Notes under the pieces: generated by a model | Database searches by the model: none | What the model was told of the DNA's origin: nothing | The model's input: the letters and a program-made list of their open reading frames with translations, nothing else | Source: an uncultured Alcanivoracaceae bacterium | Lineage (GTDB): Bacteria; Pseudomonadota; Gammaproteobacteria; Xanthomonadales; Marinicellaceae | DNA: 64,000 nucleotides | Reading direction: 5' to 3' | Assembly: GCA_964352735.1 (NCBI GenBank) | Contig: CAYGTC010000007.1 | Location: 22,379-86,378 of the forward strand | Shown: positions 844 to 17,780 of the stretch, piece by piece | Layout: every line of letters begins with the position of its first letter | Numbering within the stretch: the stretch's first letter is position 1 | Made by a program: the position numbers and the translations under genes

Positions 844-880
844 AAAACCAAGTTCAAGTAATTTGAACTTGGTTTTTTTA
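844..880. terminator. bidirectional rho-independent terminator hairpin
   Basis: A 14-bp stem (AAAACCAAGTTCAA 844-857 with TTGAACTTGGTTTT 863-876) has loop GTAAT. An A-run and a T-run flank it. It abuts the stop codon (878-880) of the minus-strand LysM/FecR gene. Confidence 0.7.
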
Positions 881-2224
881 TTGAGCCATTATTTTATAAG
901 TGTATTGGGAAATATTATCAAGATGATCAACAGCTTTGACGACAAAAGTTTTTGCACCTGAAGAGAGTCTGACAGGTGCGTCATGCCAATCTTGCCACAA
1001 ACCATTATCCCACCGATAGTGAACGCTATTAACTCCTGACTGCCGATCATAACTGAGAATATTAAATATTGTATTGGGCGAAACAACCACAACCCCATCA
1101 ACAGTTTTTTTTGTACCCAAGACGTCCAAAGCAACCAGTGGACCAGCTTCATCTGCTGAAGCATCTGCAATCACTAATGATTGTGCTTGAGACCTAAACC
1201 CAACAATATCATTTTTATCTATTCCGGCTACTCTCCAATAGAATTGACCAGAACGATTAAGATCAGCGATTTGCCAGATATTATTGGTCACTTTTTTCTG
1301 CAGAACGACCTGATTACAATCAATATCAATACAAATTTCCACCAAATAACTGTCGGCCTTATTGATTCCTTTCCACAATAATTTTGGATTAGAATAATTG
1401 AACACATCATCCAGTTTAGACAACAGTGGCGCTTTTAATAATCTTGTTGGTTTCGGCGGCGCCTGTCCTTTCTTAACCTTCATACCCATGCCTTCTGCAA
1501 TGGCCACTTGTTTGCCAGCAGATTCTACTTGAGAGTCACCTTTATAAACCGAAATCACTGAATTCCCATCTTCTAAAACACCTGTTCTCAGCGCAGTTTT
1601 TATGCCTTTTTGTGTTGAAGGCTGTAATGTTGTTGACCCTGAAATAATGGAAATTTCAGATTTTGCTACATCAAGATTATCCCAACTTAATTCAGCATCA
1701 CCTTTGATAATTTCTATAGTTGCTGTATCTGTCCCGCGCAAAGTCGTCTCTCTTGATTGCAAAAATACTTGAGAAAATTCCAAAATTTTAAATTGTGATG
1801 CATTATTTAACTTTAATAAAACCGACGATTTATCAAAAGTTCTTACACCTTCTTTTTGAATCAGCTGATCCCCTTTTGATGCTTGCAACCAATCACCAGT
1901 GTTCTTTTTTCTTTGCACTTTATTAACAACTTCAAGCATGGTTGCTTTTTGCGCAGGTATTTCTCGTTGTTTGATAATGATCAACTCTTCACCTATGGTC
2001 AAAACATGGGGGTCTTGAATATGGGGATTGAGTTTCCAGTTTTCTTTCCACAATATATCGGTTCCTAAATAGCTTCTGGTAATTGAATGTAAGGTCTCAC
2101 CTGATTTAACGGTATGCGTGATTTTGGTATCAATAACCTGAGCATAGACAAACATATATGGGTTTAACATGACAATCAGCACAATCAATAACAACTGATA
2201 TTTTGTTTTATTATTTTCCATCAT
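878..2224 (-). CDS. secreted LysM + FecR-like domain protein with C-terminal Ig-like module
   Basis: 448-aa ORF with an N-terminal signal/anchor (LLLIVLIVMLNPYMFVYAQ) and a LysM-like block (HTVKSGETLHSITRSYLGTDILWKENWKLNP...LTIGEELII). The central region resembles FecR sensor domains (IEIIKGDAELSW...VISVYKGDSQVESAGKQVAIAEGMGMKVKKGQAPPKP). The tail has an AVDHLDN Ig-like motif. It overlaps the upstream gene by 14 nt. Confidence 0.6.
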   Translation of the reverse strand: MMENNKTKYQLLLIVLIVMLNPYMFVYAQVIDTKITHTVKSGETLHSITRSYLGTDILWKENWKLNPHIQDPHVLTIGEELIIIKQREIPAQKATMLEVVNKVQRKKNTGDWLQASKGDQLIQKEGVRTFDKSSVLLKLNNASQFKILEFSQVFLQSRETTLRGTDTATIEIIKGDAELSWDNLDVAKSEISIISGSTTLQPSTQKGIKTALRTGVLEDGNSVISVYKGDSQVESAGKQVAIAEGMGMKVKKGQAPPKPTRLLKAPLLSKLDDVFNYSNPKLLWKGINKADSYLVEICIDIDCNQVVLQKKVTNNIWQIADLNRSGQFYWRVAGIDKNDIVGFRSQAQSLVIADASADEAGPLVALDVLGTKKTVDGVVVVSPNTIFNILSYDRQSGVNSVHYRWDNGLWQDWHDAPVRLSSGAKTFVVKAVDHLDNISQYTYKIMAQ

Positions 2225-3293
2225 TTTTTGCTCTGAATTTTAATTTTGTTTTCACTTTATTTCCAAATTGATCTTCTGCTATGACTTTAATGAAATTGCG
2301 TCCTCTTTTAAAAAAAGTGAAATTTTGCGGTAAAGGCTCCCACTGTTTTCGAACACTGAAATATTTGGCATATTTTAGTGATGTGTCATCTTCCACTGTA
2401 AGAAATATGTCTTGGTTGGTATTAACAATATACTTATGTCTTTTGGTGTCTAACGTTTGACCATCAATTTTGATTATAATGCTTGGTTTTTTATCATCAA
2501 CATTCCAAGCTATCGTTTCAGTGCTGCTATTACCAAGCTTATCCTCAGCCACCAATACACTGTTATTTTTGACTTTCATCTCAACTGAGTTACCATTAAT
2601 TTTATCGCCATTTAAGGTAAGTGAAGTCACTCCTACATCATCGATTGCTTCAACTCTTATCTGAGCTTTTGAACCAGCCAACCACTTTCCATTCTGCTTT
2701 ACAGCAGGCCCCAGCAACTCCCAATTGAATTGTGGCCCTTGAAAGTCAGCAATTAACCTTTCTTGTTTGATGTTTTCATTGCCAAAATAATCACTCGCTT
2801 TTACCGTAACAAGAGACGAATCTTTGGAAAATTCAACGCCCTGCTCATTATCTACGGCTTCACCATCAATCTGCACTGAAACATTACCTGAATCATCAAC
2901 AGCAACCCATTTCATCCTACTTTTAGGGCCAACAATTGTTTTATCACCCTTGTTAAATGTATTTGACCAAGTCAAATCTATGTCAGGCCCTATATCATCA
3001 ATCAATAAAATATTATCATTCGATTTAAGTTCTTTTGCCCCTTGCACTTGGATATCATGAACAACAATCCTATCCTGAGCATCTTTTATTAACAATTGAT
3101 ATTGACCAGCAGCCAAATCATTCAAACCTTCATCAATCGATTTAAAAACTCCACCATTGATGGCCCAAGTATTTGAATCTACCAACTGCAGCTGATTAAC
3201 AATATCTTTGGCCGATGAGAAGGTTAACGATTGCGCATTAATGTGAGTCGTTGCGATTATCAGACATGACAGTAGTATTTTCACTGCTTGCAT
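2211..3293 (-). CDS. secreted protein with tandem Ig-like repeats
   Basis: 360-aa ORF with a strong SD (TAAGGAG, 7 nt upstream of ATG 3293) and signal peptide MQAVKILLSCLIIATTHINAQS. Beta-sandwich-type motifs recur: VAVDDSGN, ASDYFGN, AIDDVGV, AEDKLGN, AEDQFGN. Confidence 0.5.
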   Translation of the reverse strand: MQAVKILLSCLIIATTHINAQSLTFSSAKDIVNQLQLVDSNTWAINGGVFKSIDEGLNDLAAGQYQLLIKDAQDRIVVHDIQVQGAKELKSNDNILLIDDIGPDIDLTWSNTFNKGDKTIVGPKSRMKWVAVDDSGNVSVQIDGEAVDNEQGVEFSKDSSLVTVKASDYFGNENIKQERLIADFQGPQFNWELLGPAVKQNGKWLAGSKAQIRVEAIDDVGVTSLTLNGDKINGNSVEMKVKNNSVLVAEDKLGNSSTETIAWNVDDKKPSIIIKIDGQTLDTKRHKYIVNTNQDIFLTVEDDTSLKYAKYFSVRKQWEPLPQNFTFFKRGRNFIKVIAEDQFGNKVKTKLKFRAKNDGK

Positions 3294-5190
3294 AAATAAG
3301 CTCCTTAGATGATTGAATGCCTGCTAACTTGGCATTCCAATGTGGTTTTTGTGGCGCTGCATCGGAAATCATGCGTGCTACTTCAGCTGCTGTTTCTGGT
3401 CGATTATCAGGGTTTTTATCCAACAATTTCAGAATTACTGTTATTAACTTTTCGGATTGTTTTGTAATCATTTTCTCTGGAAATAAAACTTTTTTAATAA
3501 GTGTATTACTTCTGGTTGTGTGCACTTTCTTAGCCAGGAAAGGGTTTTTACCTAACAAACATGTTGCAATCAATGCCCCCAAAGCAAATAAATCACTTTT
3601 CACGCTGACTGTTCCATGCTCATATATTTCAGGGGCAATGTATCCACTTGTTCCAGTCACATGATCTTTGGTTAAAGTTTGCAATAATGCTGTTGTGCCA
3701 AAATCAGTGATTTTAATGTCGCCATTAATGCCCAATAAAATATTTTCAGGTTTGATATCTCTATGCACAAAACCAAGTTCATGTGCACTATGCAGACCTT
3801 TAGATATGGCAATGGCGATGACTATGGTGTGTTCAATTGTTAATCTTTTATTTCTGTGTACAAAAGCATGCAAGGTTTCTCCATCAATGTATTCCATGGC
3901 AATAAAAGCAGTGGTATTAGTCGAGACCACATCAAATATGGAAACGACATTACGATGAGATATTCTGGCAGCAGTAATCGCCTCCTGAACCAACGTTTCA
4001 CTCATATTCCTGCGACTACCAAATGCACTCTTTATGGGCAATGTTTTTAAAGCCACATGTCTTTTTAACCTAGGGTCCCAACCCAAAAATACCGATCCCA
4101 TACCGCCCATACCAATTTGACTGATCACTTGATAACGATCAACAAAAATCTGACTCAAGGCATTTCTATTATCTATGTGTTTACTGATGGTTTCAAAACT
4201 TTTTTCTAAAGCTGTTACCTCACTGCCTTGCCATTGGCCTTGTTGAGTTTGTTCACCCAAGAGACTTTGGTAAGCATTAATGACTCTTCTTAATGGTTTA
4301 ACCCAAGAAATATAAGCCCAAAGTATTAAAAATATCATGGCCATCAGGATAAAAATAAAAACTTTACGAGCAGTGTCAACCATTTTACTGGCTGCTGCTT
4401 CGGCAAATTTTACAGGTTGTCTAGATATGATTGACCACTCTACGTTCTTAATTGAGGCTATGGCAAATATGCTTTTTTGTCCTTCTAGTTCATAACGATT
4501 GGCAGAATCAATTATATTCCCAGATCTGAGTTGTTGAGATAAAGACTTTGGAAGAGCGAACGCACCTTGTCCTGAGTGCTTTATTAAAAGCCCATCATTT
4601 TCAATCAATGACAAACTTGCAAAGTCCCCCAATAAACTTGGATTAAGCACATCATCAATCTTTAGGGATAATAAAGCAGAGAGATACACTTGTGGTCTGG
4701 CAGTTTTTACATGAATAACCAACTGCCTCTGATTTGTTAGAGAGACCAAAAAAATGGGTTGATCAATCTTTTTTGTGATCAGATCCTGGGCTACTTGAGA
4801 ATCTACTTGGTTTTTTTTAACCAACTGAATAATATTATTTTGAGTACTGATTTCTCGCGTTACCAACCCAATCGCATTGATATTATTTTGCGCAATTAAC
4901 GTTGACTTTAATAATTCTGCAGCACCTTCGGAATCTGGTTGCAAATAAATCGTCGGATTATTGCCCAAGGCTTCAAGTGTTGTGATGTATTGATCAAGCA
5001 AGTTCTCCATTCTATCTGCCGTAGCCCTAGAAACGATCATATGAGATTTTTGCGATTGATTAATGATCGCTTCTTGTGAATTGTTAATTTGGTACCATGA
5101 TAACAAAAAAGGTAAAATTCCCATTGCCAATAAAGTTAAAAATACCCAAATAATGATAGACCTATTTTTAAATTGCACTCTACACCCCAA
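3238..5190 (-). CDS. transmembrane Hanks-type Ser/Thr protein kinase with N-terminal extracytoplasmic Cache-like sensor
   Basis: TM1 (IIIWVFLTLLAMGILPFLL) is followed by a ~240-aa predicted periplasmic region and TM2 (VFIFILMAMIFLILWAYISWV). All kinase motifs are present: GMGGMGSV, VALK, HRDIKPENILL, DFG, GTSGYIAPE, DNRP. There is no in-frame ATG at the 5' end, so the start is TTG 5190 or GTG 5178. Confidence 0.85.
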   Translation of the reverse strand: MGCRVQFKNRSIIIWVFLTLLAMGILPFLLSWYQINNSQEAIINQSQKSHMIVSRATADRMENLLDQYITTLEALGNNPTIYLQPDSEGAAELLKSTLIAQNNINAIGLVTREISTQNNIIQLVKKNQVDSQVAQDLITKKIDQPIFLVSLTNQRQLVIHVKTARPQVYLSALLSLKIDDVLNPSLLGDFASLSLIENDGLLIKHSGQGAFALPKSLSQQLRSGNIIDSANRYELEGQKSIFAIASIKNVEWSIISRQPVKFAEAAASKMVDTARKVFIFILMAMIFLILWAYISWVKPLRRVINAYQSLLGEQTQQGQWQGSEVTALEKSFETISKHIDNRNALSQIFVDRYQVISQIGMGGMGSVFLGWDPRLKRHVALKTLPIKSAFGSRRNMSETLVQEAITAARISHRNVVSIFDVVSTNTTAFIAMEYIDGETLHAFVHRNKRLTIEHTIVIAIAISKGLHSAHELGFVHRDIKPENILLGINGDIKITDFGTTALLQTLTKDHVTGTSGYIAPEIYEHGTVSVKSDLFALGALIATCLLGKNPFLAKKVHTTRSNTLIKKVLFPEKMITKQSEKLITVILKLLDKNPDNRPETAAEVARMISDAAPQKPHWNAKLAGIQSSKELIYASSENTTVMSDNRNDSH

Positions 5191-5492
5191 AATTCAATGT
5201 CGACATTATAAAGAATTTTACTCAACTGAGGTATCAAATTAACGTTTCTTTACAATTTATTCAATATATTTTTTGTGACGCATATCACAAATAAAAATAA
5301 ATAAATATAAGTTATTGTAATGCAATCTATTTATTGTATTTTGATTTTTACACTTAATTTAAATATCCCTAATAATCTAACCCTTGGTCATCCGTGAATT
5401 TATTTGGTGGCTATCAATCGCATTCTGAGGAAGATCAAACTCATCAATCTCATGCAGTGCTAAACTTTCCAACGAGCACAGCGATCAAACTG

Positions 5493-5609: not shown

Positions 5610-6551
5610 CTATTTTTTAGGCAAATATTTCAAAGGGTTAACGGGTTGGCCATTTTTTCTGATTTCAAAATGCAGTAACGATTTACCATCATTGCCCTTA
5701 CCAGATTTAGCAATATGTTGGCCTTGTTTAACTGTTTGTCCTTCTTTGACCAATCTTTGAGAATTATGTGCATAGGCACTGAGAAGATTATCGGTGTGTT
5801 TGATAATGATCAACTCTCCATAACCTCTTAGACCGTCACCACTGTAGACCACCGTTCCATTATTGGTAGCCACTACAGTTGTGCCTTGACTGGCACTAAT
5901 ATCGATGCCTTTCCTAGACACATCTGCAGCAGAAAAGGTACTGATAACACGTCCATTAAGAGGCCACACCCATTTTGAACTGGCAGGTTTGACTGGCTGA
6001 GTTACTGGTTTTTTTACAATTGGCCGTGATTGAGGCTTATTCACAGGTTTAGTCACTGGTTTTTTTGCCACTGGCTTTGTAACATTAGGCTTTTTTGAGA
6101 CTTGAATAGGTTTCTTTACCGCAGGCTTTTTATTGTAGTTTTGCTTGGGTATTTTTGCTGGAGGTGTTGTTTTTCTAACAACAGTACCTATGGGTTTCGG
6201 TTTGATGCGAACAGGATGTGATCGGGCTTGCGCTACTTGGTTCCTTTGACGGCCTTTTGATTTTTTTAATCGCAGTTTTTGCCCAGGATAAATGTTATAG
6301 GGTGACTTTATTCGATTAATGCTGGCCAATTTTTTATAATCAATGCTGTATTTAAAACCCAAAGCATAAAGCGTATCACCTTTTCTAACAACCACCTCAT
6401 CAGGCACAAATCGTTTGGTCATTCTCTTTTGATGAACCCGATTGTATTTTCGAGGCTTGACTTCCTTAACAGGTGCAGGTGAATGAGGAGAGCAAGACGT
6501 CATAAGAACAAAGCTCAATAATATCAAACTGTGTAAAACAGCAGACCTCAT
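5610..6551 (-). CDS. nlpD: murein hydrolase activator NlpD (LysM + degenerate M23 peptidase lipoprotein)
   Basis: Lipoprotein-type signal (LMTSC), a LysM block (VVRKGDTLYALGFKYSIDYKKLASINRI) and a K/P-rich linker. The M23 domain has degenerate metal ligands (KGIDI, LLHFEI), as in E. coli NlpD. It follows surE-pcm. Confidence 0.85.
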   Translation of the reverse strand: MRSAVLHSLILLSFVLMTSCSPHSPAPVKEVKPRKYNRVHQKRMTKRFVPDEVVVRKGDTLYALGFKYSIDYKKLASINRIKSPYNIYPGQKLRLKKSKGRQRNQVAQARSHPVRIKPKPIGTVVRKTTPPAKIPKQNYNKKPAVKKPIQVSKKPNVTKPVAKKPVTKPVNKPQSRPIVKKPVTQPVKPASSKWVWPLNGRVISTFSAADVSRKGIDISASQGTTVVATNNGTVVYSGDGLRGYGELIIIKHTDNLLSAYAHNSQRLVKEGQTVKQGQHIAKSGKGNDGKSLLHFEIRKNGQPVNPLKYLPKK

Positions 6552-7207
6552 CCGCGTATCACACCCTCTAAAAATGGTACGAACATGACCGGTTCCAATT
6601 TATCGGTATAATAACCATTTTCAGTTTTAGTAATTTTAAACAAATTCTGTTGACGATTATCACCCACTGGCAAAATCATTACACCACCAACACACAATTG
6701 ATTCATCAGTGATTCAGGGATTTTTTCAGGTGCAGCAGTAGCGATGATAACATCATATGGCGCCTCATTTGGCCACCCTTCAAATCCATCACCTGTTTTT
6801 GTTCTGACGTTCAAATAACCCAATTTTATGAATCGCCTTCTTGCCATTCTGGTCAAATCATCAATTCTTTCAACACTGAAAACTTGTGGCACCAATTGGC
6901 CCAATATGGCCGCTTGGTAACCTGAGCCAGTACCCACTTCCAGAATCTTTTTTGGGTTTTGTTCAACAACAATTTCTGTCATTTTAGCAACCACCCATGG
7001 TTGTGAAATCGTTTGGCCATAATTGATCGGTAAAGCCGTATCTTCATATGCTCTATGTGACATAGCCTCATCCATAAACAAATGTCTTGGTACTTTGGCC
7101 ATTGCAGCCAGCACTTTTTCATTGTTGATGCCTTTTTCTCGCAACCTTACAACCATACGATCACGAGTACGTTGTGAAGTCATGCCTATACCAATTGCTG
7201 CATTCAT
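6548..7207 (-). CDS. pcm: protein-L-isoaspartate O-methyltransferase
   Basis: 219 aa with SAM-binding motif [12 protein letters not shown] and the QTISQP motif. It has 4-nt overlaps with surE and nlpD. Confidence 0.95.
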
Positions 7208-8311: not shown

Positions 8312-10549
8312 ATGTCGAAAATTCTTAATTTTGAAATCATGCCCATGGGCGAATACGCTGAAAAGGCTTATTTGGATTATTCCATGTATGTTGTTTTGGA
8401 CCGCGCCTTACCTTTTGTAGGTGATGGACTTAAGCCAGTACAAAGACGCATCGTTTATGCGATGAGCGAACTGGGCTTATCCGCCAAATCAAAACACAAG
8501 AAATCTGCACGCACCATTGGAGATGTGATTGGTAAATATCATCCACATGGAGATTCTGCCAGTTATGAAGCCATGGTATTGATGGCGCAGCCTTTTTCTT
8601 ATCGTTATCCTTTGGTAGATGGTCAAGGTAACTTCGGTTCACCAGATGACCCTAAGTCATTTGCAGCCATGCGTTACACCGAATCGAGACTGACGCCCTA
8701 TTCTAAAAGCCTGTTACAGGAAGTCCCTTTGGGCACCATTGATTGGCAACCCAATTTTGATGGTACTTTACAAGAACCCGTTTTTTTACCTGCGCGCTTA
8801 CCGAATATTTTACTCAATGGCGGTTCAGGTATCGCCGTCGGTATGGCCACAGATATACCTCCACATAATTTACGTGAGGTTTCAGCTGCATTGTTTCATT
8901 TATTAGATCATCCCGATGCCAGCATAGAAGACTTGTGTCAGCATATACAAGGCCCTGATTATCCAACATATGCCGAAATCATTACACCCAGAAAAGACAT
9001 TATTGACATTTATACTTCTGGCAAAGGCAGCATTAGAATGCGCTGCGTACATGAACGAGAGGATAAAAACATTGTCATTACAGCGCTGCCACACCAAGCC
9101 AGTCCTGCAAAAATATTAGAACAAATTGCCACGCAGATGCGCACCAAAAAATTACCGATGGTTGAAGATTTAAGGGACGAATCAGATCATGAAAATCCTT
9201 TTAGGCTGGTGATCATAACACGCTCTAATCGCATTGACTATGATGGACTAATGAGTCATTTGTATGCAACAACCGACTTGGAAAAGTCTTTTAGAGTCAA
9301 TTTAAATTTAATAGGCTTGGATAAGCGACCTCAAGTTAAAAATCTCAAGCTCATTTTACAAGAGTGGCTAAGCTTTAGAACTGAAACCGTAAGGCGCAGA
9401 TTGCAATATAGATTAGATAAGGTTGATGCCCGTTTGCATATTTTGCAAGGCTTGTTGATTGCTTATCTTGATTTAGATGAAGTGATAAGAATCATACGCG
9501 AAGAAGAACATCCTAAAGAAACCTTAATTGCCACTTTTAAATTATCTGAAATTCAAGCCGAAGCCATTTTAGAAACAAAGCTTCGTAACCTTGCTCGCCT
9601 CGAAGAAATGAAAATCAAAACTGAGCAAATGGAATTGATGGCAGAAAAAGATGAAATCACCGGCATATTGATGTCACGTGCCAAGTTAAAAAAACTGATC
9701 AAAACTGAAATCATGGAAGACACTGAACTGTATGGTGATGCCAGAAGAAGTATGATTGTAGATCGTGCAGCGGCTAAAGTATTTGATGAAACCAGTCTAG
9801 TACCCAATGAGCCAAACACCATCATCATGTCAAAAGCCGGTTGGGTTCGCGCAGCAAAAGGCCATGATATTGACACCCAAAAATTAAGCTTTAAATCCGG
9901 TGATGAATATGCCCACCATGCGAGAGGACGCAGCAATCTTAATGCAGTATTCTTGACCAATAACGGTCGCAGCTTCTCTCTACTTTCGCACACCCTACCC
10001 TCCGCAAGAGGGCAAGGTGAAGCGTTAACCACGAAGTTTAAATTACCTGAGGACAGTCAATTTGTCGCGACAGTCTGCGAACAAGCCGATACCATTTTAC
10101 TAATGGCAAGCTCTGCTGGTTATGGGTTCATTACAGAAACTGAAAACCTTTATTCCAAAGTTAAAGCAGGCAAACAATGTATTTCTGTACCCAAAGGTTT
10201 TACCACCATACCACCCAAAGTTATCAACAATATAGATGAGGACTTTATCATTTGTGTAACCAGTGCCGGATATCTTTTGGCCTTTCCCGTGCGAGAATTA
10301 CCTCATTTAACCAAAGGTAAAGGCAATAAAATGATCAACATACCACCAAAGTTGCTCAAAGCTGGCGATGAAAAAATGATTGATATGATTGTGGTCAGTG
10401 AAAACCAATCCTTTTTAGTGTGGGCAGGTGCCAGATACATCAGAATAAAATGGAAAGATCTACAAAACTTTTTGGGATATCGTGCCAAACGTGGTAGCCT
10501 ATTACCTAAAGGGTTTAGAAATGTTGATCGACTGGAAAAAGAAACTTAA
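8312..10549 (+). CDS. parC: DNA topoisomerase IV subunit A
   Basis: 745 aa, near colinear with E. coli ParC as I recall it ([32 protein letters not shown]..., [10 protein letters not shown] catalytic Tyr region). It is shorter than GyrA. Confidence 0.93.
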
Positions 10550-11363
10550 GTTCATATTGATACCGATATCAGGTCAATGTCTGGCATTGCCTGATATCCC
10601 CAGCCTACAAAATTGTCCTGACAACATTTTTCATGCCAGTTTTCAAAATGATTCCCAACCCAGCAATGGTGCTGGTGGCGCAACAGGCAGCTTGACCAGG
10701 ATCATCAATTTTCCTGGAGGATCCAGTCTCTATTTTTTATACGTGCCTTCAACTTATGATCCTACAATACCCATCCCATTATTGATCACCTATCATGGTA
10801 CAGCAGGTGCTGGCAATGCCAGCCAACAAGCACAAGCGATCAGAAATTTTTGGCTACAAACCGCAGAGGACAATAACTTTATTGTATTGGCACAAACCGG
10901 CAGCAGTGCCAATGGCTCATGGACTGTTGGACTGGACTTTCCATTGATTAGGGATGAAATTCTGGATGAAGTTTTTGCCTTTTATAATATTGAGACAACA
11001 AGGACTTATGGTCATGGATTTTCAGCAGGCGGCCATGTCATGCACACCATGATGCTGTTTTATAATAACAATCGATTTGCCGCCTACACAGTCAGTGCTG
11101 GTGCTTTAGAACGAGATGCGATTCAGGAAGACCCCAATGTCCCAGCCAACAACAGTGTTGTACCCGTTTATATTTCGCACGGGCAGTTTGACAATATTGT
11201 GCCCATATCATTGGCCAATGACGATTATGCAAAATTTATACAAGCAGGTTGGCAAGACGGCAGAACGATATGGATAGATACTTTTAATGGAGGTCATACC
11301 ATTGAAGCAACTTTTCCTCAAAAAAGTTGGGATCAATTGTGTCGATTTACCACAGTTGACTAA
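10521..11363 (+). CDS. alpha/beta-fold esterase, PHB-depolymerase/LpqC-like family
   Basis: [27 protein letters not shown] followed by [10 protein letters not shown], with nucleophile elbow GHGFSAGG. The start is taken at ATG 10521. ATG 10482 would extend the overlap with parC further. Confidence 0.6.
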
Positions 11364-11387
11364 AAGACTCAGTAAGTCGATTGAAGA

Positions 11388-11420
11388 CAAAAAAACCTGA
11401 AAAATATTCAGGCTTTTTTA
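11388..11420. terminator. bidirectional terminator between convergent esterase and LTD genes
   Basis: Stem CCTGAA (11396-11401) pairs with TTCAGG (11407-11412). An A-run lies upstream and a T-run downstream. Confidence 0.7.
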
Positions 11421-11435
11421 TTAGGATTATGGTGT

Positions 11436-12059
11436 TTATTCAACAGAAAAATTCATCAATTCCACTGGCAATAAACCCAGCGTTTTGACACCCAAATCAT
11501 CAAACGTGTCTTGTGGGAATGAAGACCATTCAATTGAAGGATCATAGGGATCATTGACATTGGTATCGCCGCCACAGGTTAATGCATTTCTTCTCAACGT
11601 TTCATTTTGCGTGCCTACACCACCAGCATTCCACTCTGAGCCTGGGTCACCCAGTAGATCTCCTATACTGTCTATTGTAAGCGCACCATTGCGCAATTCA
11701 ATGGTATCATCTCCATTAAAAGTCATGACAGTTGACGAGGTTAGCTGATCTGCCAAAGCAAGGAGAGAGGCATTTGCTGAATTGTTGGCAACAACAAATA
11801 CATCGTTATCTGCTATCGAGCCACTGAGTGAAAGAGAAGACGCACCACCAGTACCGCCATTAGTGTTTCTGATCAATGTGTAACTGGTCAAATCAACAAG
11901 TGCACCTGTTCCATTGTAAATTTCTATGGCTTTATTGTTACCACTGCCCTCAACATACTCAGAAATGATTAAATCCTCCTGTAAAAGAGGACACCCACCT
12001 GCTGCGACAGTAAATGATGAGATCAATGCAAAACCAGTAACCAATATTTTGTGTGTCAT
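11436..12059 (-). CDS. secreted lamin-tail-domain (LTD) protein, paralogue 1
   Basis: 207 aa with a signal peptide (LVTGFALISSFTVAA). The LTD signature matches the N-terminus of ExeM/NucH-type extracellular nucleases (LIISEYVEGSGNNKAIEIYNGTGALVDLTSY...DVFVVAN...FNGDDTIEL...DSIGDLLGDPGSEW...NETLRR). It ends in LPVELMNFSVE. Confidence 0.75.
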   Translation of the reverse strand: MTHKILVTGFALISSFTVAAGGCPLLQEDLIISEYVEGSGNNKAIEIYNGTGALVDLTSYTLIRNTNGGTGGASSLSLSGSIADNDVFVVANNSANASLLALADQLTSSTVMTFNGDDTIELRNGALTIDSIGDLLGDPGSEWNAGGVGTQNETLRRNALTCGGDTNVNDPYDPSIEWSSFPQDTFDDLGVKTLGLLPVELMNFSVE

Positions 12060-12175
12060 AGAAGTATTTCCTTTAAGTTAAGCCTCATGGATATTATCAA
12101 AATAGTAAGCTTTTCACAATATGTGCTTTGAAACAAGCTTGGAAAACACCATAGGAAAGCCATTGAATACAGGCA

Positions 12176-12210
12176 ATAAAAAACCTGAGAAAATCTCAGG
12201 CTTTTATTTT
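12176..12210 (-). terminator. rho-independent terminator of LTD paralogue 2
   Basis: Stem CCTGAGA (12184-12190) pairs with TCTCAGG (12194-12200), and a T-run follows on the minus strand. It is sequence-related to the hairpin at 11388-11420. Confidence 0.7.
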
Positions 12211-12233
12211 AAAAGTGAATTGACAGAAAATAA

Positions 12234-12887
12234 TTATTCAACAGAAAAATTTTCTAACTCAACGGGCAATTCTGTACCACCAGCACCACCATCAGCACCA
12301 GGTGTAGCAACCATTGTCGCATTAGCATTGCTACCGGAAATTATAGTCGTTTCCCAAAAACCTGTTGGAGAAGGGTCATTTGGTTTTGGAGATGGCGCAT
12401 TTATTCCAGTAGGAGTTGTTACTCCCCAAGAACCATCATTCGGTAATTGACTGGCTACTCTATGCGCCACTACATTTGAAGCAAAAGTATCAGTACCACC
12501 AATGCGATCAACTCCAAAACTATCAACAACAGATGTACCATTAAAAAGGTCATATTTGTCATTGCCATTATGGTTAATCGAGGTACTGACTTGATCCACA
12601 GTGCCAGCGCCGAATAACGTGTTAACATCTGTCGGACCAACCACATAAAAACCACCAGCAGGTATGACTCCGGTCAAAGTCACGGTTGTCGGAGTCGTTC
12701 CCCCATTACTGTAACGACGCAATTGCCACCCATCAACACTAAAATCAACAGCAGCACCACTGTTATGTAATTCAACAAACTTTGCAATACCGCCATTGGA
12801 CTCAAAAACTTCAGATATAAGTACATCCGCAGACACCGACGCCGACAATAAAACCGACAAACTGGCCAAAATTATTTTTTTATTCAT
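12234..12887 (-). CDS. secreted lamin-tail-domain (LTD) protein, paralogue 2
   Basis: 217 aa with signal peptide (ASLSVLLSASVSA/DV) and a divergent LTD (VLISEVFESNGGIAKFVELHNSGAAVDFSVDGWQL...GFYVV...NGNDKYDLF...DSFG). It ends in LPVELENFSVE. Confidence 0.7.
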   Translation of the reverse strand: MNKKIILASLSVLLSASVSADVLISEVFESNGGIAKFVELHNSGAAVDFSVDGWQLRRYSNGGTTPTTVTLTGVIPAGGFYVVGPTDVNTLFGAGTVDQVSTSINHNGNDKYDLFNGTSVVDSFGVDRIGGTDTFASNVVAHRVASQLPNDGSWGVTTPTGINAPSPKPNDPSPTGFWETTIISGSNANATMVATPGADGGAGGTELPVELENFSVE

Positions 12888-13228
12888 TTCTCAAAATACT
12901 CCACAATTTTTATACGGAAAATAAGTTGTTCAATTTTCCTATTACTCAGTCTTACACTTACCATGAAGACACTAATTAACATCTCATTATAAAACATACG
13001 ATCATCAAGTCAAGTGATTCAATGTTGCCAACATCATCCAATGAACTCTTTGGCTCCACTGGGCAATTTGCAACATAAATGTAACACCATTATTGATTTA
13101 CCTAGGGACAAAATTTTATGACATTGTGATATTTCGTTAAATTATTCAACAAACTAATTTAACAATGTTAAAATAATGTAGTGTAATCCTATGAGTTAAT
13201 AATTGAGTCATCAAAATAAACCAAAAAT

Positions 13229-16200
13229 ATGAATAAAAAATTCATCACTTTATGCATTATAAGATTCAAGCCTATCGTTTTAATTTTACTGTTTTACTGC
13301 CTCACAGCACATGCATGGTGGGACAGTGACTGGAATCATCGTGTCAACATAACAGTTGACAACACATCAGCCACCGCTGTAACCAGCTACGAAGTTAAAC
13401 TCACCATTGATGCCAGCAATGCGCCAAACTTCGATTGGAGCAACAACGGAAATGATATTCGCTTTATTGACAGCGATGACATGACAATGTTAGCTCACTT
13501 TATTGAGTCATACGATGGCATTGCAGAAATCGCCACAGTTTGGGTGAACGTACCTAATATAGCTGCAATGGACTCTGCCAATTTATTTTTTTATTATGAC
13601 AACAGCACAGCTACTAATACGACTGATGCCAGTGCAACATTCTCCCAAAGCGGCCTCAAATATCATACACGCAACAGCACATTAGACCCAGACAGTTTGG
13701 CCACAGCTCAGTCTACTTTTGATGGCATAGCCGATGGCACAACAGGATTTGGTTGCAGCAATGTCACTGCATTTACCTCTTTAGAAAACAGCGAACTTTA
13801 TGGCAGCAATAACGCCATGGCTTTGACCTCTGAGGTATTCTTTAACATGCCATCTGGCGGCACATTACAACTCAGATTAGGAGGCGATTTTGGTGATGGA
13901 GGTGGATTATATGTAGACAATACCGTTATAGAAGAGTTATGGGGACCTGTTGGCACAGGTGATGACATGTGGTGGGCCAACACTTGGGCCAGCTTTACAA
14001 CTTCACAAGAAATACTTTATGGATCAATTGTTCTATCTGCGGGTTACCATGTCCTCAGACACATTGGTTTTGAGCAATGTTGTGATGGTGATGCTACATT
14101 GGAATACCGCATCGGCACCACTGGCTCATGGCTGGCGTTCAATACCAGCAATTTATCATTGGTCAGCCCTCAATGCCCTGTTAGCACTGCTGCAAGTTTT
14201 GCCGCCGAAGAAACATTCGATGCAATCATCGGCTATGTTTCATCACAATTTCACGATCAACATGTGCTGATAGAATGGCAATCGAACTCTGAAAGTTTTA
14301 ATGTGGGATTTAATATATGGATACAAGATCACACCGGCAAATGGCTTAAATCTAACGCAGAACTGATCCCATCAGAAAAAATTAACAGCCTCACACCTTT
14401 ACAATACCATTACCGTGTTGACAATATGTCTATTGAACATTTTCAAATCAGTTCAATCAATATCCATGGAAAAGAGGAATTTTATCGCACTTATGAAGTA
14501 AAAAAATCATATGGAAGGAAAACCACAACACAATCCATTGATTGGTCGATAGTCAATCAACAAAATAACACTAAGATTAAGCAAAGAAATCTGCTCAAAA
14601 ATTCACAGCTCACCCAGATCGATCAACAGGATCTTGTCGCCAATATTAAAACCAGCAAAACCGGCATAACTAGGGTTTATTTTGACCAGTTGATGGCCGC
14701 TGGCTTGGATATCACTCAGTTTGATGACAATAATTTAGCCGTTAGCTTTAAAGGTCGTGCAATCGCGCGTAATGTACATATTGATCATAATTCTGAAAAC
14801 AGTTACGTGGAATTCTTCGCCCAAACTCTGAATAATATTGATGCCTTATACCTCTCACAAGCCATTTACCAAATTTCAAATCAGCCAGATTTAGTAAAAC
14901 ACAGCAAAAACAACCGAATTCATAGACCTCTCACATTAACACAATCATATAACACAACAGATACCCGAGATAATAATGTTGTGTATAATTTTGCCAGCAG
15001 CAGCTCAGATCCTTGGTTTGAAAAATTATTAGCCAATTTTGGAAATGGGGCCACTCATCGCATTGAATTGACAAAACCAATTGATTTAGCGCTAAATGAT
15101 AACATCAACATAACGTTAAAAATGATGGGATTAACAGATTATCCTGGTAATGCTGCGATTAATCCAGACCATCACCTTAAAGTCATTCTCAATAATAACA
15201 CAGTCATATTTGATGGATTTGAAGATGGCATAGTTGATTGGCACATCAGCATACCTCTTACCAGCCAACAATTAGAGGATGGCGTCAATACATTAGATTT
15301 AACCTTGGTCAGTGATACTGGTTTTAGTGCTGATATGGTTTATTTTGACAAACTTGAGATCGATTATACAAAACCTCTGGCTAAAAATAATCAGCCGCTA
15401 TTATTCTCTACAGACCAAAAAAATACAGAATTTGAATTATCAGGCTTCATAGACAAAAATTTTATCGCCTATGCGCACAGCGCTTCAGGAGATTTGTTTG
15501 AACTGTACATTGATGACGAACCCTCAAATATCGATCGAATATTTATGGATCAATTTGAAATTCAGCTCACTCAACACCATTATGTTGATGCAATCAATGC
15601 CACTGGCAGTCACCAGTATTGGTTTTCTGATGCCGATACAGCACTAGCGGTTGATGAAATTCATATCACCAGCAAAGAAAAAATAACATTAGATAATAGC
15701 CATTACTTAATCATATCTGACACCAATTTTATCAATCACGATCTTGAACGCTTTAAAAATGCGAAGCAACAACAAGGACTTAAAACGTCCATTATCAGTT
15801 GGCAAGATATCATTGAAAAAAACGGAAATGGCTACGCTACCCCAGAAACTTTGACACGCTTTTTGAGTTCAACTTACCAGCATTTTCGCTTTACACATGT
15901 CTTGTTGGTTGGTGCTCAAACATATGATTACAATAATTACCTCGGGTTAAACACCGTCAATTTTATTCCAACGCATTATATGAAAACCAATGGGAACTTC
16001 CATTACACGCCGACTGATTTTCCATATACGGACATCAATAAGGATGGCTATCCAAATTTTGCACTGGGTCGCTGGCCAGTAAGAACAACACAAGAACTGA
16101 ACACCATTGTCAACAAAACCCTCACATGGCAACAACAACACCCATCAAATACCATCAATTCATTATTAATTGCTGAACAACAAGATCAAAACCTCATCAA

Positions 16201-16753
16201 TTTTGCCGAACAAGCTGACAGTGTTGCAAATACTTTACAGCTTGACGCTGATTTAACCCAAAAAGTATATGTGGATGATTACCTCGCTTCTTCCTCGGAT
16301 GATCCGATTGCTGAGGCAAAAAACGACTTAATCAACCACATCAATGGTGGCGTTGACTTGGTTATATTTGATGGCCATGGTAGCCCCACCACCTGGGCAT
16401 ATCAAAACTTATTCAATACACAGGATGTTGTGCAATTAACTAACATAAATCATCCATTTTTATTATCTCCATTGAGTTGTTATACCACATATTATGAAAA
16501 CCCCAGCACCAATACTTTAGCCCATCAAATGTTATTTTCAGGACAGAATGCTGCAGTAGCCATTCATGGCGCCATGGTATTAAGCCAATACTTATCCAAT
16601 CAAAACATGGCCACAACCACTTTGAAAGATATGATTGAGCGACAAAGCACCTTGGGAGAAGCCATAATGCGTGCTAAAATTGACTTATATCATGCCATTG
16701 ACGATAATATCCTCAACTGGAGTCTACTTGGTGATCCTGCAATTACGCTGTAA
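13229..16753 (+). CDS. large secreted multidomain protein: DUF2341 + PA14-like + beta-sandwich + C-terminal peptidase C25 (gingipain/PorU-like) domain
   Basis: 1174 aa with a signal peptide ending AHA. DUF2341 signature WWDSDWNHRVNITVDN...IRFID...VWVNVP...FFYYDN. PA14-like block LQLRLGGDFGDGGGLYVDNTVIEELWG. The C25 block runs from YLIISDTNF (about 15704) to LLGDPAITL, with GHG (His codon 16376-16378) and LSC (Cys codon 16478-16480). Confidence 0.75.
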   Translation: MNKKFITLCIIRFKPIVLILLFYCLTAHAWWDSDWNHRVNITVDNTSATAVTSYEVKLTIDASNAPNFDWSNNGNDIRFIDSDDMTMLAHFIESYDGIAEIATVWVNVPNIAAMDSANLFFYYDNSTATNTTDASATFSQSGLKYHTRNSTLDPDSLATAQSTFDGIADGTTGFGCSNVTAFTSLENSELYGSNNAMALTSEVFFNMPSGGTLQLRLGGDFGDGGGLYVDNTVIEELWGPVGTGDDMWWANTWASFTTSQEILYGSIVLSAGYHVLRHIGFEQCCDGDATLEYRIGTTGSWLAFNTSNLSLVSPQCPVSTAASFAAEETFDAIIGYVSSQFHDQHVLIEWQSNSESFNVGFNIWIQDHTGKWLKSNAELIPSEKINSLTPLQYHYRVDNMSIEHFQISSINIHGKEEFYRTYEVKKSYGRKTTTQSIDWSIVNQQNNTKIKQRNLLKNSQLTQIDQQDLVANIKTSKTGITRVYFDQLMAAGLDITQFDDNNLAVSFKGRAIARNVHIDHNSENSYVEFFAQTLNNIDALYLSQAIYQISNQPDLVKHSKNNRIHRPLTLTQSYNTTDTRDNNVVYNFASSSSDPWFEKLLANFGNGATHRIELTKPIDLALNDNINITLKMMGLTDYPGNAAINPDHHLKVILNNNTVIFDGFEDGIVDWHISIPLTSQQLEDGVNTLDLTLVSDTGFSADMVYFDKLEIDYTKPLAKNNQPLLFSTDQKNTEFELSGFIDKNFIAYAHSASGDLFELYIDDEPSNIDRIFMDQFEIQLTQHHYVDAINATGSHQYWFSDADTALAVDEIHITSKEKITLDNSHYLIISDTNFINHDLERFKNAKQQQGLKTSIISWQDIIEKNGNGYATPETLTRFLSSTYQHFRFTHVLLVGAQTYDYNNYLGLNTVNFIPTHYMKTNGNFHYTPTDFPYTDINKDGYPNFALGRWPVRTTQELNTIVNKTLTWQQQHPSNTINSLLIAEQQDQNLINFAEQADSVANTLQLDADLTQKVYVDDYLASSSDDPIAEAKNDLINHINGGVDLVIFDGHGSPTTWAYQNLFNTQDVVQLTNINHPFLLSPLSCYTTYYENPSTNTLAHQMLFSGQNAAVAIHGAMVLSQYLSNQNMATTTLKDMIERQSTLGEAIMRAKIDLYHAIDDNILNWSLLGDPAITL

Positions 16754-16790: not shown

Positions 16791-17780
16791 ATGAAAACCA
16801 TTTTATTTTTACTGACACTAATGAGCAATACAATCATGGCAAAAGAACACCAACTGGCCATTGTCATCCACGGTGGTGCGGGCACAATCCTCAAAAAAAA
16901 TCTCAGTGATGAAAAGGAAAAAGCCATCAAATTAAAACTCCAAGAAGCCCTTGATGCTGGTTATAAACTGTTGACTGAAGGAAAATCATCAACAGATGCT
17001 GTGGTTGCTGCCATTAATGTTTTAGAAGACTCTGCGTATTTCAATGCTGGCAAAGGTGCAGTTTATACCACCGAAGGCAAACATGAATTGGATGCATCAA
17101 TCATGCGTGGCAATGACCTTCAGGCTGGGGCAGTAGCAGGCGTGAGTAATGTTAAAAACCCAATCAATGCTGCAAAAGCGGTTATGTTGAATTCGCCACA
17201 CGTCATGCTTTCCAATAATGGTGCTGATCAGTTTGCCAGTTCTCAAGGACTGGAAACTGTTGAGAATAGCTATTTTGACTCAGAATACCGTTATCAACAA
17301 TGGCAATCAGTATTAAAGAAGGACAGCATTTCCCTATCTGAAGATTTACTGAAATCCGATCACAAATTTGGCACTGTTGGGGCCGTAGCTATTGATAAGA
17401 ATGGCATCATCACTGCTGGCACATCAACAGGTGGCATGACCAATAAAGCCTTTGGTAGAATTGGAGACTCTCCAGTCATTGGCGCAGGCACTTACGCCGA
17501 TGACCGCAGCTGTGGCATTTCAGCAACTGGACATGGTGAATACTTCATCCGATATGCTGTGGCTCATGACATATGTGCCAGATCATTATACAAAGAAATT
17601 TCGCTGGCTGAGTCTGCTGATCAAGTCATTAAACATGATTTAAAAAATGCAGGAGGCAGCGGTGGTATAGTCGGCTTAGACAACAAAGGCAATGTTGTGA
17701 TGAGCTTCAATACTGCAGGCATGTACCGAGGGTATAAAACAGCAACCTCAACTGTCCAAGTATTCATCTATAAAGACTGA
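16791..17780 (+). CDS. iaaA: periplasmic isoaspartyl peptidase / L-asparaginase (Ntn hydrolase)
   Basis: 329 aa with a signal peptide, IVIHGGAGT, the autoprocessing site HKFGTVGAVA, and the GHGEYFIR and GGSGGIVGLD motifs. Confidence 0.85.
   Translation: MKTILFLLTLMSNTIMAKEHQLAIVIHGGAGTILKKNLSDEKEKAIKLKLQEALDAGYKLLTEGKSSTDAVVAAINVLEDSAYFNAGKGAVYTTEGKHELDASIMRGNDLQAGAVAGVSNVKNPINAAKAVMLNSPHVMLSNNGADQFASSQGLETVENSYFDSEYRYQQWQSVLKKDSISLSEDLLKSDHKFGTVGAVAIDKNGIITAGTSTGGMTNKAFGRIGDSPVIGAGTYADDRSCGISATGHGEYFIRYAVAHDICARSLYKEISLAESADQVIKHDLKNAGGSGGIVGLDNKGNVVMSFNTAGMYRGYKTATSTVQVFIYKD

Follow-up and report, generated by a model that had tools for sequence, protein, structure and literature searches.

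What connects two small exported lamin-tail-domain (LTD) proteins with the large exported C25 peptidase encoded beside them is the question raised by a segment between parC and iaaA in an uncultured gammaproteobacterium. We describe the genes of this segment, a short C-terminal tag common to the two LTD proteins and to many unrelated exported proteins, and the likeness of the peptidase to PorU, and then weigh whether a PorU-like enzyme could be the reader of the tag.

Organization of the segment between parC and iaaA

The window, meaning the whole 64-kb stretch of DNA that was analysed, was the subject of an earlier note that placed four genes between parC and iaaA, and all four are found as open reading frames. 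The conserved left flank is parC (topoisomerase IV subunit A; 8312–10549, + strand, a 745-aa ORF), with ORFs or fragments 87–92% identical in related loci L001, L002, L041, L106, L184 and L193; the right flank is an iaaA-like isoaspartyl peptidase gene (16791–17780, + strand; Pfam Asparaginase_2, E 1.6e-111). Between them lie a gene for an exported alpha/beta-hydrolase esterase (10521–11363, + strand), the genes for the exported lamin-tail-domain proteins LTD1 (11436–12059, − strand, 207 aa) and LTD2 (12234–12887, − strand, 217 aa), and the gene for the exported, multidomain C25 peptidase (13229–16753, + strand, 1174 aa), with signal peptides and export assigned by eye and with a hydrophobicity heuristic only. 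The LTD2 and C25 genes are transcribed divergently, as had been described, from the − and + strands respectively, and are 341 bp apart. On informal inspection, the remaining ORFs of the window look like housekeeping genes.

Both of the related terminator hairpins reported previously are present. The first is a bidirectional terminator-like element between the esterase gene and LTD1 (11389–11420; AAAAAACCTGAAAAATATTCAGGCTTTTTT) with the core CCTGAAAAATATTCAGG at 11396–11412, and the second, related to it and also terminator-like, lies 3' of LTD2 (12178–12210; AAAAAACCTGAGAAAATCTCAGGCTTTTATTTT) with the core CCTGAGAAAATCTCAGG at 12184–12200. A and T runs flank both hairpins, so each should be able to act in both directions. 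A promoter-like site 5' of LTD2 (12986–13013, − strand) reads TTGACT-16-TATAAT and agrees with the consensus at 11 of 12 positions; it is a consensus match only.

The segment had been called an accessory island, a term that composition and synteny make inaccurate. The G+C content from the esterase gene to the C25 gene is 0.35–0.45, the same as in the flanks, and parC, the esterase gene and one LTD gene are syntenic among relatives, with the C25 gene coming and going. The esterase ORF shares 29 nt with the 3' end of parC and therefore appears coupled to it; it follows parC in every related locus covering that flank, with homologues 43–92% identical in L001, L002, L041, L105, L106, L184 and L193. 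Given this overlap and its retention after parC, it stands outside the variable part of the segment.

By its sequence the esterase is a generic alpha/beta-hydrolase esterase, and the esterase part of the earlier assignment stands, with LC-Est1C (3wyd, E 4e-11) and feruloyl esterases as the closest PDB relatives and a GFSAG nucleophile-elbow motif that can be read in the sequence. The more specific assignment as a PHB depolymerase is not supported: in NCBIfam profile searches the protein falls far under the curated cut-offs of both NF050058 (53.6 bits, cut-off 150) and TIGR01840 (36 bits, cut-off 107.85). The Pfam Abhydrolase_2 and BD-FAE matches are weak and under cut-off.

A C-terminal tag on exported proteins

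The two LTD assignments, like those of DUF2341 and Peptidase_C25 discussed below, are borne out by Pfam matches above the gathering scores. PF00932 (gathering score 34.3) matches LTD1 with 54.6 bits (E 1.6e-14) and LTD2 with 50.5 bits (E 3.2e-13), and the N-terminal LTD of ExeM (NF033680) matches them with E 3e-29 and 3.5e-18, respectively. LTD1 and LTD2 are paralogues, about 35% identical; they have the N-terminal LTD in common with ExeM/Xds-type nucleases, but are LTD-only and have neither the nuclease domain nor the GlyGly-CTERM. LTD homologues elsewhere end in a T9SS CTD or in PEP-CTERM-like tails, and Pfam and NCBIfam searches give no T9SS CTD (PF18962/TIGR04183) in LTD1 or LTD2.

LTD1 ends in LPVELMNFSVE-stop (11439–11471, − strand) and LTD2, following a Gly-rich linker, in LPVELENFSVE-stop (12237–12269, − strand). 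More small LTD proteins bear the identical ending, and in alignment A1, where the LTD bodies are 28–35% identical, the last 10–11 residues follow the invariant pattern LPVELxNFSV(E/D)-stop. The AF2 model of LTD1 (mean pLDDT 87.8) has a confident beta-sandwich core (residues 28–190, pLDDT above 92) and ends in about 17 residues with pLDDT 63–65 and no secondary structure; as modelled, the tag of LTD1 is a flexible extension detached from the LTD core.

A tag scan of 185,579 species genomes gives 97 stretches, 87 of which (88 by a second count) terminate ORFs 100 aa or longer. The carriers are mostly Acidobacteriota, Sumerlaeota and Lysobacterales, a hydrophobic N-terminus is present in 71 of the roughly 87 tagged ORFs, and multiple tagged genes per genome are common, sometimes in tandem. 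Position −7 is Leu in all tagged ORFs, under a search pattern that also permitted Ile, Met and Phe there. The tag ends are real protein termini: each of the three stop codons occurs after the tag, and a domain-like continuation past the stop is found in just one of 88 tagged ORFs. The passengers are unrelated to each other and include choice-of-anchor J (E 3e-35), ExeM/NucH-type nuclease (in L096), P-domain and LTD proteins, which are kinds known to swap anchors; at least ten unrelated passenger families in several phyla keep the 11-mer with its terminal acidic residue. Near some tagged genes other genes are seen: one tagged family of the Acidobacteriota is followed by genes of the SurA/PpiC-like and sulfatase-TPR types, and in L007 a Rotamase_2 gene lies upstream of the tagged LTD gene.

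The tag resembles the T9SS CTD and the PEP-CTERM/exosortase, GlyGly-CTERM/rhombosortase, LPXTG/sortase and IPTL-CTERM systems in being modular and C-terminal on exported proteins, in its several copies per genome, and in its choice-of-anchor, LTD and ExeM-type passengers. It differs from these known sorting tags in having 11 residues at the extreme C-terminus with an acidic end and no hydrophobic helix, basic cluster or folded domain. Identity with PEP-CTERM, GlyGly-CTERM, IPTL-CTERM or LPXTG is rejected, the stop codon coming right after FSV(E/D) with neither helix nor basic cluster, and so is identity with the T9SS CTD, which is a folded beta-sandwich of 70–90 aa rather than 11 residues and whose models (PF18962/TIGR04183) give no match. 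No Pfam or NCBIfam model covers the tag in the proteins scanned. From its sequence and spread we infer a role for the tag as a modular signal at the C-terminus.

A C25 peptidase resembling PorU

The 1174-aa protein begins with a putative signal peptide, followed by a DUF2341 domain (residues 73–139; 13445–13645, + strand; PF10102, 58.1 bits, cut-off 23.4) and a CCXG-type domain (residues 144–312; 13658–14164, + strand; NF038118, 89.8 bits, cut-off 90). These are followed by a beta-sandwich that opens the conserved C25 module (residues 332–429; 14222–14515, + strand; AF2 strands with pLDDT of about 74–88), a PorU-like beta-rich middle region seen in NF033707 and Foldseek alignments (residues 531–825; 14819–15703, + strand), and the Peptidase_C25 catalytic domain (residues 826–1174; 15704–16750, + strand), to which PF01364 matches with 215.2 bits (E 2e-63, cut-off 23) across profile positions 1–374 of 374. 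The PA14-like module proposed in the earlier note is not supported: Pfam PA14 (PF07691) has no match in the protein at E<=0.1, and residues 144–312 are nearest NF038118. A precomputed PA14 match exists only for P0007, a distant homologue. Membership of the NF038118 CCXG PEP-CTERM family is itself rejected, with a score just under cut-off, an internal position and no PEP-CTERM tail, and the AF2 model of this region is only partly confident.

The predicted catalytic residues His1050 (FDGHGS; 16376–16378) and Cys1084 (LSCYT; 16478–16480) form an intact dyad, and both are invariant among 13 divergent family members. The C25 domain is modelled with pLDDT mostly 80–95, and its Foldseek match to the gingipain RgpB (4ief) has E 3.8e-18, TMt 0.66 and rmsd 3.6. 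By sequence and predicted fold, the protein is a clan-CD C25 peptidase closer to PorU than to the gingipains. PorU (PG0026 of Porphyromonas gingivalis, PDB 6ZA2), the T9SS C-terminal signal peptidase/sortase, shares the C25 clan-CD fold and the His/Cys pair and is the best match in both sequence and fold, with similarity that runs beyond the catalytic domain. The T9SS_sortase profile NF033707 aligns residues 531–1174 to profile positions 97–732; a PDB profile search gives E 3.5e-47 for PorU (6za2, PorU residues 283–785) and 6e-29 for gingipain R; and the Foldseek alignment to 6za2 extends over about 825 columns (E 2e-25), with a TM of only 0.37–0.40 and an rmsd of about 10 Å. RgpB and Kgp have the catalytic fold (TMt 0.59–0.66) and the Pfam C25 family in common with the window protein, but are weaker matches than PorU, and the gingipain prodomain, adhesin architecture and CTD are absent from it.

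Compared with PorU, the window protein has an N-terminal DUF2341/CCXG passenger, an extra beta-sandwich and no T9SS CTD of its own; PF18962 and TIGR04183 have no match, and the C-terminus is that of the C25 domain (…LLGDPAITL). It is not placed in the T9SS sortase PorU family, with an NF033707 score of 142.6 bits against a cut-off of 420 and no T9SS CTD.

The module of beta-sandwich, PorU-like region and C25 domain makes up the last 850 or so residues and is widespread. At E<=1e-30 its family numbers 14,400 clusters, a size that makes taxon overlap with the tag weak evidence, and its members usually bear long, variable N-terminal passengers of their own. Thermoanaerobaculia and metagenome proteins designated 'C25 family cysteine peptidase' share an approximately 830-aa C-terminal module with a tag-like first strand and variable passengers, whereas the window clade is rare, with only four full-length relatives at >=47% identity in a word-indexed search, and its first strand is degenerate. 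The nearest named full-coverage C25 relatives are from the Thermoanaerobaculia, the class richest in tags, which speaks for a connection of tag and enzyme. One Thermoanaerobaculia C25 relative is surrounded by mreBCD-pbp2-rodA genes.

Candidate readers of the tag

In sequence the tag matches the strand with which the conserved C25 module opens and for which the consensus is PTAVxLxSFxA / TPVTLSYFxA. When a PSSM made from the first strands of 99 enzymes is run against the 87 tagged proteins, its best match falls on the tag in 73, as it does in both LTD proteins of the window. The tag likewise corresponds to the opening strand of the domain ahead of the T9SS CTD in a Bacteroidota-type LTD homologue, which also speaks for a signal. 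The equivalent strand in the window peptidase (residues 332–342, AIIGYVSSQFH) is degenerate across its clade. With an invariant C-terminal tag on a predicted flexible end, and with that tag matching a strand of the C25 module, the LTD proteins look like cargo.

We put the probability at roughly 0.45 that the 11-mer is a modular tag for sorting or docking, placed at the C-terminus and plausibly read by an enzyme of the PorU-like C25 type. A tagged passenger would first be exported via Sec. The tag, acting as a minimal signal for sorting or docking, would then be recognised by pairing of beta strands and bound by a PorU-like C25 enzyme, for which the 1174-aa protein beside the LTD genes is an example. 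Cutting at the tag or just before it, the enzyme would free the passenger or hand it to a surface acceptor. The scheme would be analogous to the action of PorU on T9SS CTDs, operating without a T9SS, a system that is not known from the gammaproteobacteria, the group of the host.

Several features of the enzyme bear on this proposal. PorU works on C-terminal signals that have no transmembrane helix (PMC4560394), and it recognises a folded CTD and prefers to cleave ahead of a small residue (PMC4560394, PMC11285876). The candidate signal here is an 11-mer, a very different substrate from the folded CTD of 70–90 aa that PorU recognises, and this counts against the C25 enzyme as reader. So does the AF2 model, in which the window enzyme has a complete beta-sandwich that includes its own first strand (pLDDT 81–88) and leaves no obvious vacant slot for the tag.

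The gene neighbourhoods tell in both directions. The earlier note had suggested a surface-processing module, and the PorU-like C25 enzyme with its invariant His and Cys and the cargo-like tagged LTD proteins agree with it, but the pairing is not general. In the neighbourhood survey, tagged LTD and C25 genes adjoin, divergently, only in the window and in L001 within the lineage, and nowhere else in the loci surveyed. Four loci (L041, L184, L185 and L193) have a tagged LTD gene and no C25 gene, which speaks against the enzyme as reader, and in the first three of these iaaA lies directly beside the tagged LTD gene; in L002, L105 and L106 the C25 gene is partnered with a different small protein. 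On the favourable side, the same divergent position in the sister clade is occupied by a further small exported protein, whose C-terminal tail is anchor-like. Beyond the lineage, no C25 homologue is found within loci of up to 8 kb around the approximately 87 tagged genes of other phyla, and no tagged ORF in 79 metagenome loci with DUF2341/C25 relatives or beside P0142 or P0144. In PorU-type systems the cargo genes are normally scattered, so the idea of an enzyme and its substrate is weakened by these results and not refuted.

The same neighbourhoods fit a reading that we regard as a serious possibility, in which the tag is a real C-terminal signal read by other machinery (such as a receptor in the outer membrane, a chaperone or a step of secretion), and the C25 enzyme is unrelated, having its own N-terminal passenger or other proteins as substrates and adjoining the LTD genes through a shared, fast-changing slot. 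The C25 and tagged LTD genes vary independently at this slot, with four loci that have the LTD only and three that have another C25 partner, and no tag–C25 co-localization is seen in any other lineage surveyed. The SurA/PpiC-like and sulfatase-TPR genes by the one tagged family of the Acidobacteriota and the Rotamase_2 gene in L007 are also consistent with it, as are the long N-terminal passengers usual in the C25 family. This reading, however, gives no account of why the tag so closely matches the strand that opens the C25 module, no alternative partner conserved across phyla is found in the tagged loci, and PorU-type enzymes are the only ones in diderm bacteria known to process C-terminal signals without a transmembrane helix (PMC4560394).

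It is unlikely that the tag has no signalling role and is the leftover first strand of a truncated beta-sandwich (plus CTD), kept to cap or stabilise the preceding domain or linker. This origin is suggested by the tagged LTD protein P0022, which is 45% identical end to end with P0078, a Bacteroidota-type homologue composed of LTD, beta-sandwich and T9SS CTD; in that alignment the tag falls on the opening strand of the beta-sandwich, the domain that precedes the T9SS CTD. Against it, the 11-mer with its acidic end is borne by the many unrelated passenger families of several phyla, it stays invariant though LTD bodies fall to about 30% identity, in the AF2 model it stands off the LTD core, and repeated independent truncation at one exact residue is implausible. 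We give very little credence to a donor-strand role, in which an acceptor domain would lose one strand to the C25 enzyme and the resulting groove would be filled by the following subunit's tag, polymerising or docking LTD proteins in the manner of type V pili, whose assembly is gingipain-dependent and uses a donor-strand mechanism: the tag is strand-like with a pattern identical to a beta-sandwich edge strand, a C25 peptidase adjoins and tagged genes occur in tandem, but the passengers are diverse enzymes and binding domains and not pilin-like, no strand-lacking acceptor domain is identified (the enzyme's own sandwich being complete in the model), and co-localization is not conserved.

The segment is thus not a foreign island but a variable slot for secreted proteins within a conserved neighbourhood of an uncultured marine gammaproteobacterial lineage. 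The tag may be a sorting signal not described before, since it ends many unrelated secreted proteins and matches a strand of the C25 module; its link to the neighbouring peptidase is putative.

Gene content of the parC–iaaA interval

The ORF list exactly reproduces the gene map given in the earlier note. Following parC (8312–10549, +) are a 280-aa esterase ORF (10521–11363, +), two leftwards-transcribed genes coding for small exported lamin-tail-domain proteins, LTD1 (207 aa; 11436–12059, −) and LTD2 (217 aa; 12234–12887, −), and a divergently transcribed gene coding for an 1174-aa protein (13229–16753, +), with the Asparaginase_2/iaaA gene (16791–17780) flanking the segment. Pfam supports an LTD domain in each of the small proteins and, in the 1174-aa protein, both DUF2341 and Peptidase_C25 (E 2e-63); the PA14 assignment for the large protein finds no match in the HMM search and is dropped. 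The esterase had been described as of PHB-depolymerase type, for which there are model matches, all of them weak and scoring well under the PHB-depolymerase cut-offs; a PDB comparison places it nearest, among solved structures, to LC-Est1C and feruloyl esterases. Both of the related terminator-like hairpins can be confirmed, each with A and T runs on either side.

The G+C content of the segment is the same as that of its flanks, and synteny with relatives covers parC, the esterase gene, an LTD gene and iaaA, which together rule out a foreign island and overturn the description of the segment as an accessory island. The segment is a conserved chromosomal slot with genes for an exported esterase, LTD proteins sharing a C-terminal tag, and a PorU-like C25 peptidase. 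The start of the esterase gene lies on the end of parC, with a 29-nt overlap in the window (10521–10549) and in the related locus L041 (about 5406–5434), and further related loci likewise have the esterase ORF abutting or overlapping the parC end, an arrangement suggesting that the exported esterase is translationally coupled to the topoisomerase gene. Elsewhere in the window (878–5124, −) there are three successive ORFs of 448, 360 and 628 aa, the first two with signal-peptide-like N-termini, lying upstream of ORFs that by eye resemble nlpD and, after it, pcm and surE.

A short C-terminal tag on unrelated passengers

When LTD1, LTD2 and the single LTD protein of L001, the most closely related locus, are aligned, their bodies are only 28–35% identical and the 11-residue ending LPVELxNFSV(E/D)-stop is invariant. 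Profile searches find more small LTD proteins with this ending, and other LTD homologues whose endings are a T9SS CTD, PEP-CTERM-like tails or a short WGxLKAx(F/Y)R. The last of these endings, as (S/T)WGxLKAx(F/Y)R-stop, characterizes a second LTD-only family of about 200–217 aa (P0039, P0045, P0047, P0049, P0050, P0055, P0056, P0061, P0065, P0071, P0083, P0094, P0095, P0099, P0104, P0112 and others), and may be another short helix-less C-terminal tag on the same passenger domain.

A scan for the back-translated ending and stop codon, using one genome per species from 185,579 species, returned 97 stretches, compared with about a dozen expected by chance from the information content of the pattern. 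Of 96 usable matches, 87 (88 by another count) end ORFs of 100–1100 aa, and the other nine end very short ORFs, consistent with chance. A hydrophobic N-terminus is present in 71 of the 87 tagged ORFs, and position −7 of the tag is always Leu, though the pattern admitted Ile, Met and Phe too. All three stop codons are used and the sequence past the stop has a domain-like continuation in only one of 88 tagged ORFs, by which we reject a read-through site or a pseudogene artefact. The main hosts are Acidobacteriota (Thermoanaerobaculia, Holophagales, Vicinamibacteria), Sumerlaeota and Lysobacterales/Rhodanobacteraceae, with a few other Gammaproteobacteria, Hydrogenedentota and other groups as minor hosts; there are up to four tagged genes per MAG, some of them in tandem.

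The passengers, the parts of the proteins ahead of the tag, are mutually unrelated, and include choice-of-anchor J (E 3e-35), ExeM/NucH nuclease, P-domain and LTD proteins, a small Cys-rich family, and several families without annotation. The AF2 model of LTD1 has a confident LTD core, and its last ~17 residues, including the tag, are of low confidence (pLDDT) and have no secondary structure; together with the presence of the tag on unrelated passengers, this excludes it from the LTD fold. Such features typify modular sorting or docking tags at the C-terminus; this one differs from those already known in having no hydrophobic helix and in not being a folded domain. None of the Pfam or NCBIfam models matches the tag in the proteins scanned, and we found nothing relevant in the literature on the motif, on LTD plus C25, or on C25 outside Bacteroidota.

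Tandem tagged pairs recur, in L010, L027, L185 and the window (11436–12887), sometimes with differing passenger subtypes. The L185 pair consists of a classic LTD gene and, after it, a gene whose 253-aa tagged product is of another type with no Pfam or NCBIfam match; both proteins end LPVELMNFSVE. The Lysobacteraceae locus L043 codes for a P-domain protein with the LPVEL tag.

The C25 module and its first strand

The clan-CD C25 domain proposed for the 1174-aa protein is borne out not only by Pfam but by its catalytic residues and fold. In a profile of 13 divergent family members His1050 and Cys1084 are invariant, and the best PDB match of the profile is PorU (6za2, E 3.5e-47), with gingipain R at 6e-29. 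In Foldseek, ~825 columns of the AF2 model (mean pLDDT 76.9) align to PorU (E 2e-25), with RgpB matched by the catalytic domain (TMt 0.66). Among NCBIfam models, residues 531–1174 align to T9SS sortase PorU at 142.6 bits against a cut-off of 420, and for residues 144–312 the match is to the 'CCXG family PEP-CTERM protein' domain, where the score of 89.8 bits falls just short of the cut-off, 90. The protein has a predicted signal peptide (by eye and hydrophobicity) and is without a T9SS CTD or other C-terminal anchor.

PorU-like C25 peptidases are very common outside Bacteroidota. In an exhaustive profile search the C-terminal ~830 residues, made up of a beta-sandwich, PorU-like domains and the C25 domain, form a very common module found in 14,400 clusters at E<=1e-30; among the best 150 of these the module is C-terminal in all, nearly always at the extreme end, and is preceded by N-terminal regions of 0 to >3000 residues. 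The clade of the window protein is rare, with only four full-length relatives at >=47% identity in a word-indexed search. Giant C25-module proteins (1000–4800 aa) are encoded in two- or three-gene tandem arrays on freshwater and sediment metagenome contigs (L107, L110, L111, L112, L134), and in Thermoanaerobaculaceae the gene for a 1647-aa C25-module protein (L187/L188, 10001–14944) has mreB-mreC-mreD-pbp2-rodA-rng on one side and asnB-glnS on the other, a housekeeping-type location kept in five contigs.

The module opens with a strand resembling the tag, PTAV(E/D/T)LxSF(T/S)A in metagenome family members and, in the consensus of the 150 best representatives, TTPVTL(S/A)(Y/S)FxA, some 830 residues ahead of the C-terminus. 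A PSSM built exclusively from 99 enzyme first strands has the C-terminal tag as its top match in 73 of the 87 tagged proteins, and the same holds for LTD1 and LTD2 of the window. Moreover, the tagged LTD protein of the related locus L184 can be aligned over its full length (45% identity) to a longer LTD protein in which the tag-aligned LPVELSIFK opens a beta-sandwich followed by a T9SS CTD. The PSSM matches and this alignment together argue, at the level of sequence, that the tag is homologous to the first strand of the domain opening the C25 module, a domain that can also precede the CTD in T9SS cargo. In the window enzyme the equivalent strand is degenerate (AIIGYVSSQFH), and the AF2 model still puts it inside the sandwich; a vacant slot for the tag there (strand complementation) is unsupported, since the modelled sandwich is complete with its own first strand, which would still be compatible with strand exchange.

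Neighborhoods and candidate readers of the tag

Slot content varies among the eight related loci compared, all of which except L105 and L185 include part of parC (87–92% identical). In the window and L001 tagged LTD genes are divergent from the C25 gene; in L041, L184 and L185 they adjoin iaaA with no C25 gene, as is also the case in L193, where ycaO takes the place of iaaA. In L002, L105 and L106 the C25 gene is instead divergent from a gene for an exported, 238–243-aa proprotein-convertase P-domain protein (6234–6965, 6139–6855 and 8973–9689, respectively; all −), with a tail of VPS(L/V)SFYG, a hydrophobic helix and a basic cluster, KQKRR. An IPTL-CTERM assignment for the L106 protein is a resemblance by eye with no HMM support, its only matches being weak ones to midcut_by_XrtH and DUF7534.

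The co-localization of LTD and C25 genes anticipated in the earlier note is confined to adjacency in two close genomes and is absent outside the lineage, which leaves an obligate gene pair unsupported; the esterase–LTD pairing is the more conserved. Outside this lineage no C25 homologue is found near tagged genes within tagged loci of at most 8 kb, and none near tagged LTD genes on the long contigs L004–L007, a 1175-aa gene upstream in L004 and L006 being unrelated to the C25 protein. Conversely, no tagged ORF neighbors P0142, a Thermoanaerobaculaceae enzyme, or P0144, and none occurs in 79 metagenome loci with DUF2341/C25 relatives, a scan seeded on DUF2341 in which most matches are DUF2341 proteins without a C25 domain. 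The survey removes neighborhood support for an enzyme–substrate relation without refuting it, because PorU cargo genes are scattered too in Bacteroidota. Two observations speak weakly for such a relation: each of the two clades has, divergent from C25, a gene whose small exported product bears a sorting-like feature at its C-terminus, and Thermoanaerobaculia, the most tag-rich class, supply the nearest named relatives of the enzyme with full coverage.

ORF clustering finds no machinery gene common to tagged loci across phyla, only lineage-specific neighbors, for example a PPIase-like gene and a sulfatase-TPR gene in Acidobacteriota. One tagged family ending …NAIFRVTGDNLPVELMxFSID (L019, L026, L042, L071, L080, L083; Acidobacteriota) has on its 3' side, in the same orientation, genes for a SurA/PpiC-like protein of ~560 aa and for a sulfatase+TPR protein, and in L007 a Rotamase_2 gene (8966–9835) is directly upstream of a tagged LTD gene; these neighbors could reflect a dedicated periplasmic chaperone.

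By analogy with PorU, which cleaves CTDs via a sortase-like mechanism (PMC4560394), the best mechanistic reading, to which we give a probability of about 0.45, is that the tag would be a minimal C-terminal signal read via beta-strand pairing, with C25-module enzymes its most plausible readers or processors. The main rival, which is distinctly possible, is that the tag is real and is read by other machinery, the LTD–C25 adjacency being a by-product of a variable secretome slot; the varying slot content and the scarcity of C25 genes near tags fit this, and the resemblance between the tag and the module's first strand favors the C25 enzymes. A purely vestigial strand, compatible with that homology and set against a tag recurring on unrelated exported passengers, is improbable, and a pilus-like strand-exchange assembly, which the strand-like tag would suit and the complete sandwich of the enzyme does not favor, is very improbable; both are less likely than the other two. 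A more inclusive form of the C25-reader interpretation, which we consider doubtful, holds that LPVELxxFS(V/I)(E/D)-COOH would be an undescribed minimal sorting signal without a transmembrane helix that mimics the first beta-strand of the PorU-like C25 module, and that the enzymes would be T9SS-independent sortases or signal peptidases, with processing in cis of the N-terminal passengers they carry and in trans of tagged cargo, across Acidobacteriota, Sumerlaeota, Lysobacterales and certain marine Gammaproteobacteria.

C-terminal sorting tags decide which proteins reach the bacterial surface and, to our knowledge, the tag–enzyme pairs discovered to date (sortase, exosortase, rhombosortase, PorU) have each led to a new field and to protein-engineering tools. 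Here the yield is a very short helix-less tag on ~87 proteins in several poorly studied phyla, together with a concrete candidate reader, a huge uncharacterized family of PorU-like C25 peptidases whose module opens with the same strand. If the link between tag and C25 is false, the tag would be an orphan signal whose machinery is searchable by phylogenetic profiling; if it is true, it would give a function to thousands of proteins annotated as 'C25 family cysteine peptidase', and would reveal PorU-type processing without a type IX secretion system.
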